Part shown: one piece after another, positions 3,301-13,730 of the stretch | Numbering within the stretch: position 1 is the first letter of the stretch | Layout: every line of letters starts with the position of its first letter | Source of the DNA: a virus | DNA length: 14,617 nt | Virus genome (UHGV): UHGV-0060032 | Direction: 5' to 3' (one strand) | Program-made: the position numbers and the translations under genes | Notes under the pieces: generated by a model | Database searches by the model: none | Seen by the model: only the letters and a program-made list of their open reading frames with translations | Told to the model about the DNA's origin: nothing

Positions 3301-3711
3301 ATGAAACAGACAATTTTCCTCAGGAGTAAGCAACAACAGCAAACCGCAATCACCGCCATCCTCGCAACACCACTCGATAAAGACAAGCCAGTTACCATCC
3401 GCATTACTGACTACAAGCGCAACCTTGACCAGAACGCAAAATTTCACGCGATGCTGGCGGATATCGCAAGTCAGGTTCAATGGTGCGGCAAATGGTTAAA
3501 ACCAGAACAATGGAAGGTTTTGTTGATAAGCGGTCATGCAGTGGCAACAAAGCAGGAAGCTGATGTTTTGCCCGGCCTTGAAGGCGAATACGTCAACATT
3601 CGCGAAAGCAGCGCGCAGATGAGCGTGAAGCGTATGGCAAGTCTGATCGAGTACACAACAGCATGGGCTATTGGTCAGGGTGTCAGATTTACCGACAGGA
3701 GGTACGAATGA
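3301..3711 (+). CDS. ninB: NinB-like recombination protein
   Basis: The segment [24 protein letters not shown]...[12 protein letters not shown] resembles lambda NinB as I recall it; GAGGAA RBS; first gene of a nin-like cluster. Confidence 0.6.
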
Positions 3712-3884
3712 GACGACAGCGACGAAGTATCACCGACATAATCTGCGAAAACTGCAAATACCTTCCAACGAAACGCTCCAGAAATAAACGCAAGCCAATC
3801 CCAAAAGAATCTGACGTAAAAACCTTCAACTACACGGCTCACCTGTGGGATATCCGGTGGCTAAGGCATCGTGCGAGGAAATGA
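3708..3884 (+). CDS. ninE: NinE-like small protein
   Basis: 58-aa basic product [19 protein letters not shown]...; ATGA overlap with ninB stop; size and position match ninE. Name is from recall and synteny only. Confidence 0.5.
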
Positions 3885-3886
3885 CA

Positions 3887-4297
3887 ATGGATTATTCACA
3901 GTTAAGTGATTTTGAAATTAACAAGCGAGTATGTGAGGCTTTAGATATGGAGGAGCATTTCTTCATACCTGATGACGAAGCAGATTTCGATTCTGAGATC
4001 CCCACTGACGAAAGAGGTCCTATTTGGCAGACGCAAAAAAGGGATATTAATGGCTTCCGTTCTTCAAACGGAAATTGCTTCAATCCTTGCAATAATCCTG
4101 AATATGCGTGGCCAATTATCACTGAAAACAAAATCAGCATAATGTTTGATAGTACCGATACGAGATATGAAGGCGAATATCACGAGTGGTGTGATGCGAT
4201 TTCATCTTGTCAAAAGTTCGGAATTCAGTATCAGTCTAATCCACTCCGCGCCGCCATGATTGTCTTTCTCATGATGCAGGACGCCAATAATGCTTAG
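3887..4297 (+). CDS. Hypothetical protein in NinX-like position (136 aa, acidic, Cys-containing)
   Basis: ORF between ninE-like and ninF-like genes; start at 3887 chosen for GAGGAA spacing (3881 also possible). The NinX call is positional only. Confidence 0.4.
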   Translation: MDYSQLSDFEINKRVCEALDMEEHFFIPDDEADFDSEIPTDERGPIWQTQKRDINGFRSSNGNCFNPCNNPEYAWPIITENKISIMFDSTDTRYEGEYHEWCDAISSCQKFGIQYQSNPLRAAMIVFLMMQDANNA

Positions 4298-4466
4298 CCC
4301 ATCCCAATCCCTTCAATACCAGAAAGAAAGCGTCGAGCGGGCTTTAACGTGCGCTAACTGCGGTCAGAAGCTGCATGTGCTGGAAGTTCACGTGTGCTCC
4401 GATTGCTGCGCAGAGCTGATGAGCGATCCGAATAGCTCAATGTACGAGGAAGAAGACGATGAATGA
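4290..4466 (+). CDS. ninF: NinF-like small Cys-rich protein
   Basis: 58-aa ORF absent from the supplied track (under 60 aa); MLSPSQSLQYQKESVERALTCANCGQKLHVLEVHVCSDCCAELMSDPNSSMYEEEDDE; CxxC...CxxCC pattern; overlaps both neighbours. Confidence 0.5.
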   Translation: MLSPSQSLQYQKESVERALTCANCGQKLHVLEVHVCSDCCAELMSDPNSSMYEEEDDE

Positions 4467-5181
4467 GTTAATAAATGGCAATGCCATCAAAATGACAAGC
4501 ATTGAAATCGCTGAGTTGGTGGGAAGTCGTCATGACAAGGTGAAACAATCTATTGAACGACTGGCGGCTCGAGGTGTGATCCGAAATCCCCCAATGGTGG
4601 TTTTCGAAAAAATCAATAACTTAGGATTACTTCGTGGCGTAGAGGCTTACGTTTTTGAGGGCGAACAAGGTAAGCGAGACAGCATTATTGTCGTCGCTCA
4701 GTTGTCGCCGGAATTCACCGCTCGTCTTGTTGACCGTTGGCGAGAGCTTGAAGAAGCTGCGGTTAATATCCCCAAAACGCTACCAGAAGCGTTGCGCCTT
4801 GCTGCTGATCTTGCTGAGCAGAAAATGCAACTGGAAAACCAGCTCGCAATTGCCGCACCTAAAGTTGAGTTTGCCGATCGCGTTGGCGAGGCCAGCGGAA
4901 TTTTGATTGGAAACTTTGCAAAGGTTGTTGGTATTGGTCCAAACAAACTGTTTGCGTGGATGCGCGATCACAAAATCCTTATTGCTTCAGGTTCCCGGCG
5001 CAATGTGCCAATGCAGGAATATATGGAGCGCGGCTATTTCACAGTGAAAGAAACAGCGGTCAACACAAATCACGGAATACAGATATCGTTCACCACAAAA
5101 ATCACCGGGCGTGGTCAACAGTGGCTGACCAGAAAGCTGCTCGATAACGGAATGCTGAAAGTAACAGGGGAGGCTGCTTAA
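4459..5181 (+). CDS. Phage antirepressor-like protein (Rha/AntA-like N-terminal region, KilA-C/ANT-like C-terminal region)
   Basis: 240 aa; N-terminal SIEIAELVGSRHDKVKQSIERL resembles Rha/Ant N-domains; C-terminal half (APKVEFADRVGE...YFTVKET...) resembles KilA-C domains. Assigned by recall of family motifs. Confidence 0.6.
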   Translation: MNELINGNAIKMTSIEIAELVGSRHDKVKQSIERLAARGVIRNPPMVVFEKINNLGLLRGVEAYVFEGEQGKRDSIIVVAQLSPEFTARLVDRWRELEEAAVNIPKTLPEALRLAADLAEQKMQLENQLAIAAPKVEFADRVGEASGILIGNFAKVVGIGPNKLFAWMRDHKILIASGSRRNVPMQEYMERGYFTVKETAVNTNHGIQISFTTKITGRGQQWLTRKLLDNGMLKVTGEAA

Positions 5182-6593: not shown

Positions 6594-6668
6594 GGGTCAG
6601 TCGTATAAAGGTCATTACGGAAGGCTGTTAACCTTCTTATCGTGGTTCGAGTCCACGCTGTCCCGCCA
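6594..6668 (+). tRNA. tRNA-Asn (anticodon GUU), phage-encoded
   Basis: Hand-folded cloverleaf, 75 nt: acceptor GGGTCAG/CTGTCCC (one U-U mismatch), U8, anticodon stem GAAGG/CCTTC with loop CUGUUAA, T-arm CGTGG-TTCGAGT-CCACG, discriminator G and encoded CCA. Confidence 0.6.
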
Positions 6669-6673
6669 AACAT

Positions 6674-6749
6674 GCTGGTTTAGCTCCAATGGTAGAGCGG
6701 TCGCCTTGTAAGTGAATAGGTAGCGGTTCAAATCCGTTAACCGGCACCA
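6674..6749 (+). tRNA. tRNA-Thr (anticodon UGU), phage-encoded
   Basis: Hand-folded cloverleaf, 76 nt: acceptor GCTGGTT/AACCGGC, D-arm GCTC-CAATGGTA-GAGC, anticodon loop CUUGUAA (stem has one G-A mismatch), T-arm AGCGG-TTCAAAT-CCGTT, discriminator A and CCA. Confidence 0.55.
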
Positions 6750-7695: not shown

Positions 7696-8159
7696 TTAGC
7701 GCACTGGTTAAGCGTTACTGGCTGCAGTTGCTGGTGCTGGCGTTAATCGGCGCACTGGCTTTCTTCGTGAACCACTACCGCGACAACGCCATCACTTACA
7801 GAGACCAGCGCGATAAGGCCACTGAGAAACTCCTCCTGGCGACCGCCACCATTAAAGACATGCAGACCCGCCAGCGTGATGTCGCTGCACTGGATGCCAA
7901 ATACACCGGAGAACTGGCTGATGCGAAAGAAACCATTGAGCGTCTGCATAGCGATGTCATTGCTGGCCGTAAGCGGCTGCAAGTCGCCGCCACCTGTGCA
8001 AAGTCAACGACCGGAGCCAGCGGCATGGGCGATGGAGAAAGCCCAAGACTTACAGCAGATGCTGAACTCAATTATTACCGTCTCCGAAGTGGAATCGACA
8101 AGATAACCGCGCAGGTTAACTACCTGCAGGAGTACATCAGGACGCAATGCCTGAAATAA
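7692..8159 (+). CDS. Rz-like i-spanin
   Basis: 155 aa; N-terminal transmembrane segment [17 protein letters not shown] then charged coiled-coil-like region; ATGA overlap with lysozyme stop; contains Rz1 in the +1 frame. Confidence 0.8.
7921..8106 (+). CDS. Rz1-like o-spanin (outer-membrane lipoprotein) embedded within Rz
   Basis: 61 aa from ATG 7921: [20 protein letters not shown] (signal peptide plus lipobox Cys) followed by proline-rich [13 protein letters not shown]; fully nested in Rz. Confidence 0.75.
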
Positions 8160-8192
8160 TTTTTTTTGCAAATCACAAAGTCCATTTAATGA

Positions 8193-8216
8193 GCCTCGCG
8201 ATGCGGGGCTTTTTTA
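8193..8216 (+). terminator. Rho-independent terminator-like hairpin after the lysis cassette
   Basis: GCCTCGC (8193-8199), loop GAT, GCGGGGC (8203-8209, one G-U pair), followed by TTTTTT. Confidence 0.6.
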
Positions 8217-8359
8217 CATCTGAATTTCACAGCGCATCTCACGCGCATATTACCACTCAGAACCTTTCAGGATGACCCTTGAGGATACCGGCTGGCTGTC
8301 GGAGCATCTGAGGGCCGGATTTCCTGTGAGACAAGGTTCATCACTAAAAGGTAAATCCG

Positions 8360-8911
8360 ATGAATGATATTTCTATCGAATATCTGAAAGAAGCACTGGA
8401 ATACGCACCAGATACTGGTGTTATCCGTTGGAAGCAGCGACCAAAAATTCATTTTAAGACCGAAAATTCTTGGCGGGCGACCAATGCTAATTTTGCTGGA
8501 AAAGTAGCAGGCGCACGTGATAGCGATGGATATTTGCGTATCGGGATATGCGGCCGGTTATATAGATCTCATCGTGTAGCCTGGGCGTTACATTACGGCT
8601 ACTGGCCTGATAATGAGATTGATCACATTTCAGGCGATAGGAGTGATAACCGCATAGACAACTTGCGATCAGTAACTTCGGCAGCCAATAGCAAAAATTT
8701 GCGCCTTTACTCCACAAATAAAACCGGTATCCCAGGAGTAGGTTGGTATAAAGCGCGGGGAAAGTGGAGAGCAAAGATAAACGTCTCTGGGAAGGTGAAG
8801 CATATTGGTTACTTCGATGATTTCCGTGAAGCGGTGAAAGCAAGAAAGGCTGCCGAGATGCAGTTGCAATATCACAAAAATCACGGAACCAGAGACAGGC
8901 TCACTTTCTAA
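8360..8911 (+). CDS. HNH endonuclease with C-terminal AP2-like DNA-binding region
   Basis: 183 aa; HNH core HRVAWALHYGYWPDNEIDHISGDRSDNRIDNLR; C-terminal GIPGVGWYKARGKWRAKINVSGKVKHIGYFDDFREA resembles AP2 domains of phage endonucleases. Confidence 0.75.
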   Translation: MNDISIEYLKEALEYAPDTGVIRWKQRPKIHFKTENSWRATNANFAGKVAGARDSDGYLRIGICGRLYRSHRVAWALHYGYWPDNEIDHISGDRSDNRIDNLRSVTSAANSKNLRLYSTNKTGIPGVGWYKARGKWRAKINVSGKVKHIGYFDDFREAVKARKAAEMQLQYHKNHGTRDRLTF

Positions 8912-8925
8912 AAGGTAAAGACGCT

Positions 8926-9450
8926 ATGAATAATCATTCAGTTATTCCATCCTTCGACTTCCGAGAAATGGTGCAAGCCAAAAACGGAGAGGTCGTTACC
9001 ACATCCAGAAAAATTGCCAAGTACTTCGGCAAGCGACACGGTGATGTTCTCAGGAAAATCGAGCAGGTTAAGGCTGATTGCTCGCGTGAGTTTAGCCAAC
9101 GCAATTTTGCGTCGGCTGATTATATCGATGAGCAGGGCAAGGTTCGCCCGATGTACAGCCTGACGAAAGATGGCTGGATCATGGTTGTGATGGGGTTCAC
9201 CGGGAAAGCTGCTGCGGCAATCAAGGAGAGCTATATCGCAGCATTCAACTGGATGGCAGAGCAGCTAAACCGGCGCATGGCGATGGGTGAAGAATTGCAG
9301 CATCGCTACGCCATCAAAGAAACGCGCTCAAAGCTGAAAGGCACGTTCGGAAGCCGTTTGATGAACGAGCGGAAGAAAGAGAAGCGCGTCCTGGAGCTCG
9401 AACATGAGCACATCATGCAGGTAACGCAGCCGGAATTACTTATTGGCTGA
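8926..9450 (+). CDS. Phage regulatory protein Rha family
   Basis: 174 aa; VVTTSRKIAKYFGKRHGDVLRKIEQV...MYSLTKDGWIMVVMGF matches the Rha-domain pattern as I recall it. Confidence 0.65.
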   Translation: MNNHSVIPSFDFREMVQAKNGEVVTTSRKIAKYFGKRHGDVLRKIEQVKADCSREFSQRNFASADYIDEQGKVRPMYSLTKDGWIMVVMGFTGKAAAAIKESYIAAFNWMAEQLNRRMAMGEELQHRYAIKETRSKLKGTFGSRLMNERKKEKRVLELEHEHIMQVTQPELLIG

Positions 9451-9510
9451 TCGCGGCATTACAGAAGCCCTTCATTGAGGGGCTTCGATAATGGAGCACT
9501 GGAATTATTC

Positions 9511-10131
9511 ATGAACAGACCACACCCACCAGCGCATTTTACGATGCCACCTGACCCGAAGCCGTACATCAGCATTATGCCCGCTAATGACGTTGGCGAG
9601 TGGCTGAATCAGCACATCCTGAGCGATGAGGGTGACCTCTACAACCATGACCACCAGCATTTGCTTGAAGCGGATCTGTGCTTTCTCTGGGCATCGAACG
9701 CTTTCGAGAAGAAAGGGCGTTCCGTGCTGGGGCAGGCGGAAGAAGTGGCAATGCGGGCCGGAGGCTGGCAGAAAGCGCGGATGGAGCAGCAGATGTATGA
9801 ATGGTTCGGCAGGGTGCCGCAGTTCATCATCACGCTGGCCGCCGATTACTGCTCGCAATGTTCCGATCTGGAATTCTGCGCGCTGATAGAGCACGAGCTT
9901 TATCACATCTGCCAAGCGACAGATGAATTTGGTGCGCCGAAGTTCACGCAGGAAGGGCAGCCAAAGCTGAAGCTGCGCGGCCATGACGTGGAAGAGTTTG
10001 TGGGCGTGGTTCGCCGTTACGGTGCGAGCCGGGACGTGCAGGAAATGATTGATGCGGCGAATCAGCCAGCGGAGGTTGCTCATCTCGATATTGCCAGAGC
10101 GTGCGGGACGTGCATGCTGCGACTGGCTTAA
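9511..10131 (+). CDS. Hypothetical HExxH-motif protein (putative zinc metallopeptidase-like)
   Basis: 206 aa from ATG 9511 (TTG 9475 or ATG 9544 also possible); HExxH motif in ALIEHELYHI preceded by CSQCSDLEFC; GC-rich codon usage like the packaging genes. Confidence 0.5.
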   Translation: MNRPHPPAHFTMPPDPKPYISIMPANDVGEWLNQHILSDEGDLYNHDHQHLLEADLCFLWASNAFEKKGRSVLGQAEEVAMRAGGWQKARMEQQMYEWFGRVPQFIITLAADYCSQCSDLEFCALIEHELYHICQATDEFGAPKFTQEGQPKLKLRGHDVEEFVGVVRRYGASRDVQEMIDAANQPAEVAHLDIARACGTCMLRLA

Positions 10132-10162
10132 ATACTGGACTGTATAAGACGAATGGTGATTT

Positions 10163-10636
10163 ATGGCTGCATTAAAACCTGATGTGAAAGCCTTCATCAT
10201 TCAGTCGCTTGCGTGCTATGACACGCCATCGCAGGTGGTCGAGGCTGTCCAAAAAGAATTCGGGATCAGGATCACCCGCCAGCAGGCTGAATCTCACGAC
10301 CCCACGAAGGCCAGCGGTAAGACGCTCGCCAAAAAGTGGATCGAGATGTTCCACGCGACGCGCGAACGGTTCCTGACCGAAACCAGCGACATTCCGATAG
10401 CGAACAAATCCTATCGCCTCCGCGTGCTTGACCGCATGGCAACCAAAACCGAGGGGATGAAAAACTTCTCCCTGACGGCGCAGCTTATCGAACAGGCCGC
10501 GAAAGAGGTTGGCGACGCTTACACCAATAAGCTGAAGGTTGAGAGCACTGGCAAGGATGGCGGCCCGATCAAGACCGAGACGACCAACCTCACCGCAGAT
10601 CAGGCCGCAGAGATTTACCGCAAGATGATGGGGTGA
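10163..10636 (+). CDS. Terminase small subunit (DUF2280-like)
   Basis: 157 aa; [35 protein letters not shown] resembles the DUF2280 putative small-terminase family as I recall it; directly upstream of and overlapping TerL. Confidence 0.6.
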
Positions 10637-10638
10637 TC

Positions 10639-12261
10639 ATGCCTCTCCCGTTTGAATTCGATTTCAGAAACCCTGATTACCAGATGGTTTTTGAATGGCG
10701 GATGGAGCGCTTACAGCGCATTCGCCAGAACCCTGAAATGCTGCCAGCGCTAAAGCAGTTTTATCGCACCAACCCGGCACAGTTCATCATCGACTGGGGT
10801 ATGACTACTGACCCGCGTAACATCGATTATGGCCTGCCGGTCACCATCCCTTTTCTGCTGTTCCCGAAACAGGAAGAGTGGATTCACTGGATCATGGAGC
10901 GGCGCGAACGACTGGAGAACGGCATCACCGAAAAGAGCCGCGAAATGGGGCTCAGTTGGACCGCGATCGGGCTGGCCTGCTCGCTTTGTCTCTTCAACAA
11001 AGAAATGGTTATCGGTTTCGGCTCCCGTAAAGAGGAATACGTCGACAGCACCGGTGACCCGAAGGCGCTGTTCTGGAAGGCGCGAAAGTTCGTGGAAACA
11101 CTGCCCATCGAGTTTCGTGGTTCGTGGGACGAGAAGAAGCATGCGCCGTATATGCGCGTTGAGTTTCCCGATACTGGCGCGGTCATCAAAGGCGAGGCTG
11201 GCGACAATATCGGTCGTGGTGACCGTACCACGCTCTACCTGGTGGATGAAGCTGCATTCCTCCAGCGTCCTCTGTTGATTGATGCGGCGCTGTCGCAAAC
11301 CACCCGTTGCCGTATTGACCTGAGCTCGGTTAATGGCATGGCGAACCCGTTCGCGCAGAAGCGTCACGGCGGGAAGATACCGGTATTCACATTCCACTGG
11401 CGGGATGATCCTCGCAAGGATGAAGAGTGGTATCGCAGGGAGTGCGAGAAAATCGACAATCCGGTGGTGGTGGCGCAGGAACTTGACCTGAACTACAGCG
11501 CATCTGCGGAAGGCGTCCTGATCCCGTCCGACTGGGTACAGGCTGCCGTCGACGCGCATATCAAACTTGGTATTCAGCCAACGGGCAAGCGACTGGGCGC
11601 GATGGACGTCGCCGACGAAGGCCGGGACAAAAATGCCTTTTCGACCCGTCACGGCTTCCTTCTGGAGAACGTGCGTGAATGGTCCGGCGTGGGCAGCGAC
11701 ATTTACCAGTCCGTTGAGAAGGTCTTCGGCTTTTGCGAACAGGACAACCTCGAAGAATTTCGCTTCGACGAGGACGGCCTGGGCGCTGGCGTTCGCGGCG
11801 ATGCACGCGCCATCAACGAACTGCGTAACGCTGCGCGCCGACCGTCAATACTCGCCACACCGTTTCGTGGTAGCGGCGCGGTATTTGATCCGGACGATGA
11901 AGCGGTGCGCGGGGACAACGGACAGGCCGCACGCCTGAACAAGGACTTCTTCGCCAACGCCAAGGCCCAGAGCTGGTGGCATTTACGCAAGCTTTTCCAG
12001 AACACCTATCGCGCCGTGGTTGAGGGCATGGCCTACAACCCGGACGAAATCATCTCAATCAGCAGCGCCATGGCGAGCAAAGACAAACTCATCATCGAGC
12101 TGTCGCAGCCGACCTACTCCATTAATGGCGTGGGGAAAATCGTTGTTGATAAACAGCCTGATGGCACCAAGTCGCCGAACCTCGCCGACTCGGTGATGAT
12201 CAGCTACGCGCCAATGAATTCAGCCCTGAACATCTGGGAGCTGCTAGGGAGACAGGCCTGA
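10639..12261 (+). CDS. Terminase large subunit
   Basis: 540 aa from ATG 10639 (in-frame GTG at 10633); Walker-B-like [11 protein letters not shown]; size and position between TerS and portal; acidic C-terminal half consistent with a nuclease domain. Confidence 0.75.
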
Positions 12262-13730
12262 TGGCACGAAACAAGCAATCCTCTCAGCGAACGGCACAGC
12301 CCACCGCTGACGGCTACGAGAACTTCGTCGCCCGTGTTGGGATGCAGACGCCTAACCAGCATTCAGCATCGACCTACCGGGCGAACTCCACCAGCCGCAA
12401 CCGCATGCTGGTGGAATGGTCATATCGCGGTTCGTGGGTTATCGGTGAAGCGGTCGACGCTATCCCGGACGATATGACCCGAAAGGGCATTCGCATCACT
12501 TCGGAGATTGACGCCAAAGACCGTGGCACCCTCGAAGCGCAACTGGATGAGTTGCAGATCTGGGATGCGCTGAACGACGTGCTGAAATGGTCGCGCCTCT
12601 ACGGCGGCGCGGTCGGCTTCATCATGATCGAGGGGCAAGCACCAATGACCCCGCTGCGACTCGAAACCATTGGCGAGGGCAAGTTTAAGGGCATTCTCCC
12701 GCTCGACCGCTGGATGATTAACCCGGTGCTGACACGCCGCATTAAAGAGATGGGGCCGGACCTCGGCAAGCCTGAGTTTTACGACGTGGTGACCACCGCA
12801 ACGGGCATTCCGGCCTGGCGCATCCATCACAGCCGCCTGATCCGCTTTGATGGCGTCACGCTGCCATTCCAGCAGAAGATGACCGAAAACGAATGGGGAA
12901 TGTCGGTTGTAGAGCGTATCTGGGATCGGCTTACTGCGTTCGATAGCGCTACTGTCGGCGCGGCGCAGCTGGTCTATAAAGCGCATCTGCGTACCTATAG
13001 CGTGGAGAAGTTGCGCGAGCTTATCGCGCTTGGAGGCCCGGCGTTCGAAGCGTTGCTGAAGAACATCGACCTGATCCGCCAGTTCCAGAGCAATGAAGGT
13101 ATGACGCTCATGGACTCGCGGGATAAGTTCGAAACCCACCAGTACAGCTTTAGTGGTCTGGATGACATTCTTTCGCAGTTTGCTGAGCAGATCAGCGGTG
13201 CCGTTGGTATCCCGCTGGTACGCCTGTTCGGTCAATCCCCGAAAGGCTTCTCTACTGGTGATGCAGACCTCGCCAACTATTACGACCGGGTGAGCTCATT
13301 GCAGGAGCGCCGCTTACGGCTGCCGATGCGCCGGATACTGGACATTATGCACCGCTCGGAACTCGGAAAGCCGCTGCCGGACGATTTCACGTTTGAGTTT
13401 AACCCGCTATGGCAAATGTCAGACGTTGACCGATCAACGGTGGCCGTAAACACCACCAACGCGATCAGTACCGCGCTGGGCGACGGATTGATGACGCGTA
13501 AGGCGGCGATGACCGACCTGCGCGAAAACTCTGACGTCACCGGCATCGGGGCATCCATTACCGACGAGGATATCGAGAATGCCGAAGACGAAGCGCCGCC
13601 AGGCATCGGCGAACTTGGCGACAAACCGCCAGAGTCGCCAGGCGGAGATCCGATATCGAACGAGCCTACGGCAGATAGCGCGGGCGGTCGGGGATATCGT
13701 AAATGGGCGCTACGATGGTTCAAACGATAG
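12261..13730 (+). CDS. Portal protein
   Basis: 489 aa; ATGA overlap with TerL stop; position after TerL and before a Mu-F-like gene (SPP1-type order); acidic low-complexity C-terminus. Confidence 0.7.
   Translation: MARNKQSSQRTAQPTADGYENFVARVGMQTPNQHSASTYRANSTSRNRMLVEWSYRGSWVIGEAVDAIPDDMTRKGIRITSEIDAKDRGTLEAQLDELQIWDALNDVLKWSRLYGGAVGFIMIEGQAPMTPLRLETIGEGKFKGILPLDRWMINPVLTRRIKEMGPDLGKPEFYDVVTTATGIPAWRIHHSRLIRFDGVTLPFQQKMTENEWGMSVVERIWDRLTAFDSATVGAAQLVYKAHLRTYSVEKLRELIALGGPAFEALLKNIDLIRQFQSNEGMTLMDSRDKFETHQYSFSGLDDILSQFAEQISGAVGIPLVRLFGQSPKGFSTGDADLANYYDRVSSLQERRLRLPMRRILDIMHRSELGKPLPDDFTFEFNPLWQMSDVDRSTVAVNTTNAISTALGDGLMTRKAAMTDLRENSDVTGIGASITDEDIENAEDEAPPGIGELGDKPPESPGGDPISNEPTADSAGGRGYRKWALRWFKR

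Follow-up and report, generated by a model that had tools for sequence, protein, structure and literature searches.

What kind of unit is the run of genes that separates the lysis genes from the terminase genes in a lambdoid prophage? The question is raised by UHGV virus genome UHGV-0060032, of which a stretch of 14,617 nucleotides (nt), here called the window, was analysed, and in particular by positions 8360-10131, where three open reading frames (ORFs) lie on the + strand (8360-8911, 8926-9450 and 9475/9511-10131). An earlier note on this DNA had taken them for a single acquired cargo block in which a Rha regulator and an HExxH protein form a regulator-effector pair. Comparison of the junction across complete E. 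coli genomes (5,426), phage records (50,697), the GTDB set of one genome per species and IMG/VR contigs points elsewhere: we give a probability of roughly 0.8 to the reading that the interval is a mosaic junction of three independently inherited units and not an accessory module. The three genes are:

8360..8911, + strand: candidate free-standing homing endonuclease of HNH_3 (+AP2-like) type, 183 amino acids (aa), 552 nt (Pfam, phrog_99 and PADLOC homing-endonuclease models)
8926..9450, + strand: rha, a phi80-type Rha family regulator, 174 aa (Phage_pRha, TIGR02681)
9511..10131, + strand: PF18894 'putative phage metallopeptidase', 206 aa, with a minimal zincin fold (Pfam, AlphaFold2 model)

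Profile searches with Pfam recover in each ORF the domain that had been guessed for it (HNH_3 with a weak AP2 match, Rha, HExxH), and all three proteins belong to catalogued families. The genes do not, however, vary together. The count base is the 207 fetched loci with a full-length homologue of the PF18894 protein, the HExxH ORF of the window (hereafter MP): neither Rha nor HNH lies upstream in 195, Rha alone does so in 10 and a distantly related HNH alone in 2, and none has both. The trio is equally absent from the 5,426 E. coli genomes and the 50,697 phage records, none of which spans the complete interval; the best of them cover 80-83% of it, without the HNH gene. Rha is found without MP in phi80 and in locus L005, MP is found without Rha in 197 of the 207 loci, and all combinations apart from the trio are seen among the compared loci, for example:

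L001: slot with Rha and MP; packaging genes DUF2280, TerL
L002: slot with a 46-aa ORF and MP; packaging genes DUF2280, TerL
L003: slot with KilA-N, a small ORF and MP; packaging genes DUF2280, TerL
L004: slot with a GIY-YIG remnant, a head-fibre gene and MP; packaging genes DUF2280, TerL
L005: slot with HNH and Rha, no MP; PBSX-type terminase
L006 and phage Dewey: slot with HNH and KilA-N, no MP; Terminase_2 small subunit (L006)
phi80: rha after Rz and the terminator, no MP; a cos phage, right genome end

The slot after the lysis genes is occupied by Rha, KilA-N, GIY-YIG, Ant or HNH genes, or by none. A cargo block has in its favour that the three genes of the window are contiguous, on the same strand and closely spaced, and that relatives do carry accessory genes in the slot. 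It is nevertheless very improbable given the missing trio, the free occurrence of Rha and MP without one another, three separate recombination boundaries (8218, 8930 and 9457), and the composition and linkage of MP, which place it in the packaging module. The earlier interpretation is therefore only partly right. Its insertion hot spot and its separately acquired HNH gene hold, whereas the block and the Rha-HExxH pair do not survive the comparison across relatives that the note itself had proposed; the profile searches it had also proposed gave each protein a catalogued family. The Rz-to-terminase junction is indeed variable (the Rz-to-MP distance is 333-2714 nt in 43 loci, with differing contents), but the right-hand limit of the slot lies upstream of the HExxH gene and not downstream of it. 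Instead of being cargo, that gene opens the packaging module, where it is conserved and tied to the DUF2280 gene. As a junction, the interval is an ordinary mosaic.

The DNA of the window comes from the late region of a lambdoid prophage, in which nin-type genes, the antiterminator region, tRNAs, a lambda-type holin, lysozyme, Rz, the three ORFs, the DUF2280 gene, TerL, the portal gene and a head-morphogenesis gene follow one another, so that the flanks are as the earlier note gave them: holin, lysozyme and Rz upstream, and DUF2280, TerL and portal downstream.

The HExxH protein and the DUF2280 gene

If Rha and the HExxH protein are not partners, which gene does the latter belong with? The features needed to answer this are:

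9457..9510, + strand: left boundary of the packaging block, with the hairpin GAAGCCC...GGGCTTC (9463-9485) and the MP ribosome-binding region
10132..10162, + strand: MP-TerS spacer, 31 nt, with direct repeats CTGGAC (10135-10140) and TAAGAC (10145-10150), 10 nt apart, then a Shine-Dalgarno sequence (SD)
10163..10636, + strand: DUF2280 protein, 157 aa, probable small terminase subunit (TerS) (PF10045, 167.6 bits); its stop overlaps the TerL start
10633..12261, + strand: large terminase subunit TerL (phrog_2; RefSeq label 'TerL protein' in relatives)
12261..13730, + strand: portal protein (Phage_portal_3, 352.5 bits)

A block shared among E. coli prophages starts exactly at 9457 (query position 1858), 7 nt past the rha stop, and from there through MP, DUF2280 and TerL is 97-99% identical in many of these prophages, irrespective of what lies upstream. 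The composition of MP is packaging-like, with a GC content at third codon positions (GC3) of 0.67, as against 0.70-0.72 in TerS and TerL and 0.42 in the HNH gene. The hairpin at 9463-9485 is GC-rich and has no T-run; close relatives keep it with compensatory changes whatever their upstream content, and in more distant ones this position upstream of MP is often taken by a terminator-like hairpin.

The linkage extends far beyond E. coli. MP is followed by the DUF2280 gene some 31-36 nt on in about 55 of 62 genome loci from different species of Enterobacterales, Pseudomonas, Burkholderiales, Xanthomonadales and an alphaproteobacterium, with Pusillimonas, Castellaniella, Acidovorax, Luteibacter and Pseudogemmobacter among the genera; most of the exceptions are MP pseudogenes that are truncated, or contig ends. 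Seen from the DUF2280 side, MP lies directly upstream in 79 of 80 IMG/VR loci, with a gap of 30-32 nt; in more distant DUF2280 loci it is adjacent in 61 of 76 and within 2.4 kb in 13 more (74 of 76 in total). These 13 loci (L155, L160, L173, L181, L187 and others; IMG/VR) carry an insert of 0.5-2.4 kb between the two genes. The linkage spans Gamma-, Beta- and Alphaproteobacteria, and it is kept while the downstream TerL varies from Terminase_6 (Delftia) to Terminase_3 (Enterobacter, Pseudomonas) and a third type without a Pfam match (the window).

What the DUF2280 protein does can be approached through its neighbours. Its only Pfam match is DUF2280, and comparison with characterised small terminases gave no terminase family, NCBIfam or PDB match. 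Its C-terminal 39 aa (window 10517-10633) are 62% identical to the tail of a Terminase_2 small subunit in L006 (6630-6746), which precedes a TerL that is 97% identical to that of the window. Because the gene overlaps the TerL start and shares this tail with a Terminase_2 small subunit, we infer that it encodes the small terminase subunit. L006 has no MP despite its like TerL, and therefore MP co-varies with the DUF2280 protein's N-terminal domain and not with TerL or with Rha. The shared tail itself looks like domain swapping, in which the DNA-recognition part of TerS is exchanged on a constant TerL-binding tail. On this sequence evidence the real uncharacterised pair at the junction would be the zincin and the DUF2280 small terminase, not Rha and the HExxH protein.

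The 31-nt spacer between the two genes adds a second peculiarity. Among 111 distinct spacers the longest direct repeat has a mean length of 4.93 nt, compared with 3.09 +/- 0.09 nt in shuffled sequences, and in 80 of 86 spacers the copies are 10-11 nt apart, which is one helical turn. The repeat unit is phage-specific and both copies change together: ACCTGGAC, AATTAGAC, TTTATAC, TCCTGAC and TGAGAC each occur twice in their own spacers, and the repeats of the window are weaker than those of other phages. Such paired repeats with a phage-specific unit are characteristic of a tandem DNA site that is bound by a protein whose recognition is phage-specific. The spacer could contain a recognition (pac) site for TerS or an operator. 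The repeat bases share more mutual information with TerS columns than with MP columns, a result of little weight as phylogeny was uncontrolled.

As to the protein itself, MP matches PF18894 with 147.3 bits (gathering threshold 23.7) over profile positions 2-134 of 134, and its start is most likely the ATG at 9511 (206 aa) and not the TTG at 9475, since RefSeq annotates 100%-identical homologues in this way. The HExxH motif is HELYH at residues 128-132. In an alignment of 103 sequences H128, E129, H132 and H158 are invariant, as are C198 and C201 in the flexible C-terminal tail, while D159, E161, E162, C114 and C117 are nearly so; the acidic residues belong with an EE helix (160-170) and the cysteines form the pairs C114/C117 and C198/C201. 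A first AlphaFold2 run on a shallow alignment (51 sequences, 71-99% identity) reached a predicted local distance difference test score (pLDDT) of 58.7 and was discarded. The model from the 103-sequence alignment, which includes distant homologues, has a pLDDT of 87.8 and a predicted template modelling score (pTM) of 0.79, and its top fold matches are zincins: the minigluzincins projannalysin (4jix, score 7.1), selecase (4qhf, 6.2) and proabylysin (4jiu, 5.6), the SprT domain of Spartan (6mdx, 6.3), Wss1 (5xbn, 4.7) and ArdC (6sna, 3.9). A SprT-type site is marked by a third zinc-binding histidine a few residues past HExxH; MP has no such histidine 6 residues after the motif and falls outside the SprT/Spartan/Wss1 group. 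Its arrangement, in which the helix that bears HExxH precedes another one with conserved acidic residues, fits the description of zincin metallopeptidases (PMC5512222).

The earlier note had held that a match of the HExxH protein to a well-characterised family would speak against its reading. The protein does match a curated family, with 3,468-4,718 protein clusters at 90% identity, but not a well-characterised one: a literature search on the function of PF18894 or DUF2280 found no experiment, biochemical report or publication. Searching the MP profile against PDB sequences gave no meaningful match to any chain, no NCBIfam model matched, and a fold search of BFVD re-found only the family itself. 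PHROG labels the matching family phrog_513 (9511-10128) 'transposase / integration and excision'; no domain, fold or context supports this, and we treat it as a misnomer, an annotation error that is likely to propagate. The family is thus named but uncharacterised, and the metallopeptidase activity of MP is putative.

How should the linkage be read? MP is the first gene of the packaging module, co-inherited with the DUF2280 TerS gene regardless of the large terminase that follows. That its association with a single TerS type is tight and ancient, and persists across three TerL types, suggests a function of MP with or on this TerS at packaging initiation, which we put forward tentatively and at rather less than even odds. 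Several points weigh against it. Three DUF2280 loci (L122, L151, L195) have no MP within 4 kb, a distant MP in L065 is followed by a DUF5681 gene and not by DUF2280, and the evidence for a packaging role is the gene linkage itself. This linkage may be positional, with MP simply the first gene of the late structural operon or a hitch-hiker with a cis site in the spacer.

The strongest alternative takes up this last point. MP could be a stand-alone zincin akin to polyvalent or ArdC-type protein domains, an anti-defence or host-takeover protease that is possibly packaged and injected, whose link to DUF2280 is positional because a TerS site or translational signals reach into the spacer and the 3' end of MP. 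The ArdC structure is indeed among the fold matches, with the lowest score of those given above. Yet a Pfam search found no ArdC-N or other delivery domain in MP, and no PADLOC model matched it, although that library covers host defence systems and not anti-defence proteins. A 31-nt cis site alone, moreover, does not explain why a catalytically intact protein of 206 aa is kept beside TerS in three proteobacterial classes and with three TerL types. We consider the anti-defence protease less likely than not, though only slightly less probable than the packaging partnership, and return to the possible partnership of MP with TerS in the last section.

A structured leader before the first slot gene

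What controls the genes in the slot? Two features upstream of the HNH gene bear on this:

8191..8216, + strand: terminator-like hairpin after Rz (stem 8191-8211), with a 9-bp stem containing 6 GC pairs, then a T-run
8262..8352, + strand: RNA leader in the form of a long irregular hairpin; the HNH SD is sequestered by its basal stem (ACCUUU 8262-8267 / AAAGGU 8347-8352)

The hairpin that the earlier note saw closing the lysis genes is real: it is kept in all the phages that were compared by alignment and is given as a putative terminator in the phi80 record. No sigma-70 promoter meeting the scan criteria was found in 8212-8260, where one had been sought on the idea of a self-transcribed moron. 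Between terminator and leader lies a small hairpin (8232-8246, GCGC AUCUCAC GCGC), and L003 has at the equivalent position a 6-bp stem of other sequence, AUGCGU/ACGCAU.

The leader of the window folds with a minimum free energy (MFE) of -39.6 kcal/mol (z = -3.06). Similar DNA is present in 413 phage records by blastn, an exact-pattern scan of IMG/VR found at least 120 such stretches, and each copy folds into the same hairpin, with its basal stem paired to the SD of the downstream gene. RNAalifold on a raw MAFFT alignment gave a poor consensus, as three sequence types were misaligned, and the structure was derived instead from individual MFE folds and then tested with a covariance model built from eight copies. 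This model matches the window at 8260-8365 with 93.4 bits, for an element of about 95 nt, and 36 copies in the searched loci, including L008 (6080-6171) and more than 30 others. In the combined-search alignment of 34 copies, 90.6% of cells are paired, compared with 35-47% when partners are slid; this alignment was fitted to the model, which favours structure, but the margin is nevertheless large. Compensatory double changes occur in 26 of 29 base pairs, many with two or three balanced pair types, and the covariation score is 0.528, against 0.220 for shuffles (0 of 500 reach the observed value) and 0.05-0.11 for slid partners. All model matches lie on the coding strand, and G-U pairs are frequent on the sense strand only. 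In L003, where the basal-stem sequence differs, an extra outer helix covers the SD instead.

The genes that follow the leader are unrelated to one another: Rha, KilA-N/ORF11CD3, P22-type and KilAC-type antirepressors, HNH_3, GIY-YIG-like, TerB, tail-tip-like and unknown proteins. phi80 has a second leader copy, which precedes ORF x171.28. In the Stx phage Min27 (L231, 1529-2201) the leader and an antirepressor gene lie between the R endolysin and Rz genes, not after Rz, and therefore the leader travels with its gene as a unit. None of the 4,227 covariance models of Rfam 15 matches it: only two tRNAs reached gathering score in that search, and the best hit in 8100-8400 had 20 bits (E 0.5). The small RNA 24B_1/d_ant of phi24B was considered as a prior description and rejected, as it concerns a site inside d_ant and not the leader hairpin.

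From these sequences the leader is read as a portable translational-control RNA for post-lysis accessory genes. Late transcripts would read through the hairpin at 8191-8211 under Q antitermination, and the leader hairpin would then throttle translation of the first gene in the slot, until released by some trigger, for which RNase III processing, temperature and a protein that sits on the conserved GUGAGA loop are candidates. Alternatively, the leader could be conserved just as a linker for recombination or as a site that acts at the level of DNA, such as a homing target, since mosaic boundaries lie at it and genes for homing endonucleases (HNH, GIY-YIG) repeatedly stand right after it. A DNA-level site accords poorly with the compensatory changes, the pairing excess over slid partners, the strand bias of G-U pairs and model matches, and above all with SD sequestration being kept by a different helix in L003, and we think it unlikely.

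The HNH cassette and rha

Where did the first two genes of the interval come from? In addition to the coding sequences, two features delimit the insertion:

8218..8930, + strand: mobile HNH cassette of about 715 nt, containing the small hairpin and an entire type-A leader, followed by the HNH ORF and by a second leader's 3' half as far as the next ATG
8892..8928, + strand: type-B leader remnant, 3' half, GAGACAGGCTCACTTTCTAAAAGGTAAAGACGCTATG (alignment and sequence), its 5' pairing partner missing

The HNH gene is AT-richer than the packaging genes, as the earlier note had it: its GC content is the lowest of the region at 44.7% (GC3 42%), compared with 56-58% (GC3 67-72%) in MP, TerS, TerL and portal, and matches that of the early region (45.8%). 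Of the 5,426 E. coli genomes 2 contain it, each with a copy that is 100% identical to that of the window and each in a different phage context. Exact nucleotide identity runs over 8218-8935 with L005 and over 8210-8930 with L006, beginning at the terminator's T-run and reaching the following gene's start codon, with flanks of only 86-94% identity, which bears out separate acquisition. Alignment shows the cassette to be absent from the relatives L001 and phi80, so that a presence/absence polymorphism at one site is combined with an identical copy in divergent genomes. The terminator at 8191..8216 forms the left homology arm. On the right, the 37 nt GAGACAGGCTCACTTTCTAAAAGGTAAAGACGCTATG encode the last 6 HNH codons and the stop and carry the rha SD and ATG; the same 37 nt lie immediately 5' of rha in L001 and phi80 and of KilA-N in HK620, and a diverged copy, GAGACAAGGTTCATCACTAAAAGGTAAATCCGATG, lies 5' of HNH at 8328-8362.

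The protein matches HNH_3 (PF13392) with 67.5 bits (cut-off 24.8) and phrog_99 with an E value of 1.7e-67. Its AP2 match (PF00847) is weak, at 18.9 bits against a cut-off of 33.3, and a related HNH protein in L132 matches AP2 with E 1.7e-6. The identical sequence in three backgrounds, its rarity, its site-specific presence or absence, and the GIY-YIG nucleases that occupy the same site in other phages together point to a free-standing homing endonuclease, with cleavage as its predicted activity. The cassette has taken the place of most of the structured leader that stood before the first gene of the variable post-lysis slot; it supplies its own complete leader, and the HNH ORF ends within the 3' half of the old one. 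The enzyme would cut HNH-less alleles in co-resident lambdoid phages, after which the cassette would be copied in through repair, with the conserved terminator serving as the left arm and the leader and ATG as the right.

HK97 gp74 is a terminase-associated HNH endonuclease that the terminase needs to cut concatemers, and that the HNH gene of the window, which lies within 1.3 kb upstream of the terminase genes, has such a role is scarcely credible when phages with 97-100%-identical TerS/TerL (L001-L004) and 205 of the 207 MP-TerS loci do without it, when it is of the HNH_3 + AP2-like homing type with two genes between it and TerS, and when the identical gene stands beside two other, unrelated terminase types.

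The rha gene is already known in kind and place. Its product scores 99.4 bits against Phage_pRha (PF09669; threshold 29.9) and 113.9 against TIGR02681 (threshold 45.95), and it is 76% identical in amino acids to phi80 Rha, which has the same map position after Rz and the terminator, a late-operon position beyond the lysis genes. Members of the family (phi80 rha, P22 orf201) encode a late-operon product that blocks lytic growth in hosts deficient in integration host factor (IHF), a phenotype known for these two phages only (PMC4936722), and the phi80 record also carries a note on rha and IHF-deficient hosts. The rha gene of the window is a phi80/P22-type late-operon regulator and one of many alternative occupants of the slot. 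What sets it apart is its junction with HNH, whose stop (TAA 8909-8911) overlaps the rha SD (AAAAGG 8910-8915). As rha is left with only the 3' half of a leader and an SD that abuts the HNH stop, its translation is probably de-repressed or coupled to HNH termination.

Farther upstream, two tRNA genes, Asn (GTT) at 6594-6668 and Thr (TGT) at 6674-6749, lie between the antiterminator region and the holin gene, and the position of this pair is similar in several related prophages (L001, L004, L006).

Significance and comparison with known systems

What is worth following up at this junction is the zincin-DUF2280 pair with its repeat-bearing spacer, and the leader RNA that is absent from Rfam. In thousands of proteobacterial prophages one type of small terminase is tied to a catalytically intact zincin; if the zincin does take part in packaging initiation, it would be a new component of a process thought to need only TerS and TerL, and the spacer repeats are a concrete candidate for the TerS recognition site. 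As a regulatory RNA that sequesters the SD of genes such as the antirepressors of Stx phages, the leader is open to experimental test, and for work on homing between resident prophages the HNH cassette offers a clean natural case. At its most ambitious, the sequence evidence could be taken to mean that the zincin is an obligatory partner of the DUF2280 TerS, forming an undescribed protease-assisted module of packaging initiation that processes or remodels TerS or a DNA-bound factor, with the spacer repeats as pac site or operator, and that, independently, the hairpin at 8262-8352 represents a new class of portable translational-control RNA in lambdoid and P22-like phages. In this full form the proposal is speculative, and we would rate it as rather unlikely.

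Each part of the junction has its known counterparts. Phage free-standing homing endonucleases of HNH_3+AP2 type share with the HNH gene the HNH_3 domain with a C-terminal AP2-like region, intergenic insertion, presence or absence at one site and an identical copy in divergent backgrounds; the AP2 match of the window is, however, below the Pfam threshold, and unlike usual homing endonuclease genes the cassette brings along a complete structured leader and terminates within that of the following gene, an unusual junction. Compared with phi80 rha and P22 orf201 (PF09669), the rha of the window lacks the 5' strand of the SD-sequestering leader and follows an HNH gene, and its allele is 76% identical to the common E. 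coli allele.

The N leader of phage lambda is an SD-sequestering mRNA leader processed by RNase III. The leader of the window resembles such leaders in that it forms a long irregular hairpin and pairs the downstream SD with its basal stem, and differs from the known ones in having no Rfam family, in being portable and in standing before unrelated genes.

With minigluzincins and SprT, Spartan and Wss1 proteins, MP shares a fold over only about 90 of its 206 residues, at 10-15% identity. An invariant H158 and a C-terminal CxxC are features of its own, and its pairing with a small-terminase gene has no precedent in those families. Finally, the packaging genes resemble the pac-type TerS-TerL modules of lambdoid and P22-like phages, in that the DUF2280 gene overlaps the TerL start, encodes a Terminase_2-like tail and is followed by portal and MuF-like genes. 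In contrast to these two-gene modules, and to the other TerS type found at the same TerL (L006), which has neither zincin gene nor repeat spacer, the DUF2280 type carries in nearly all loci examined an additional upstream zincin gene and a spacer with repeats.

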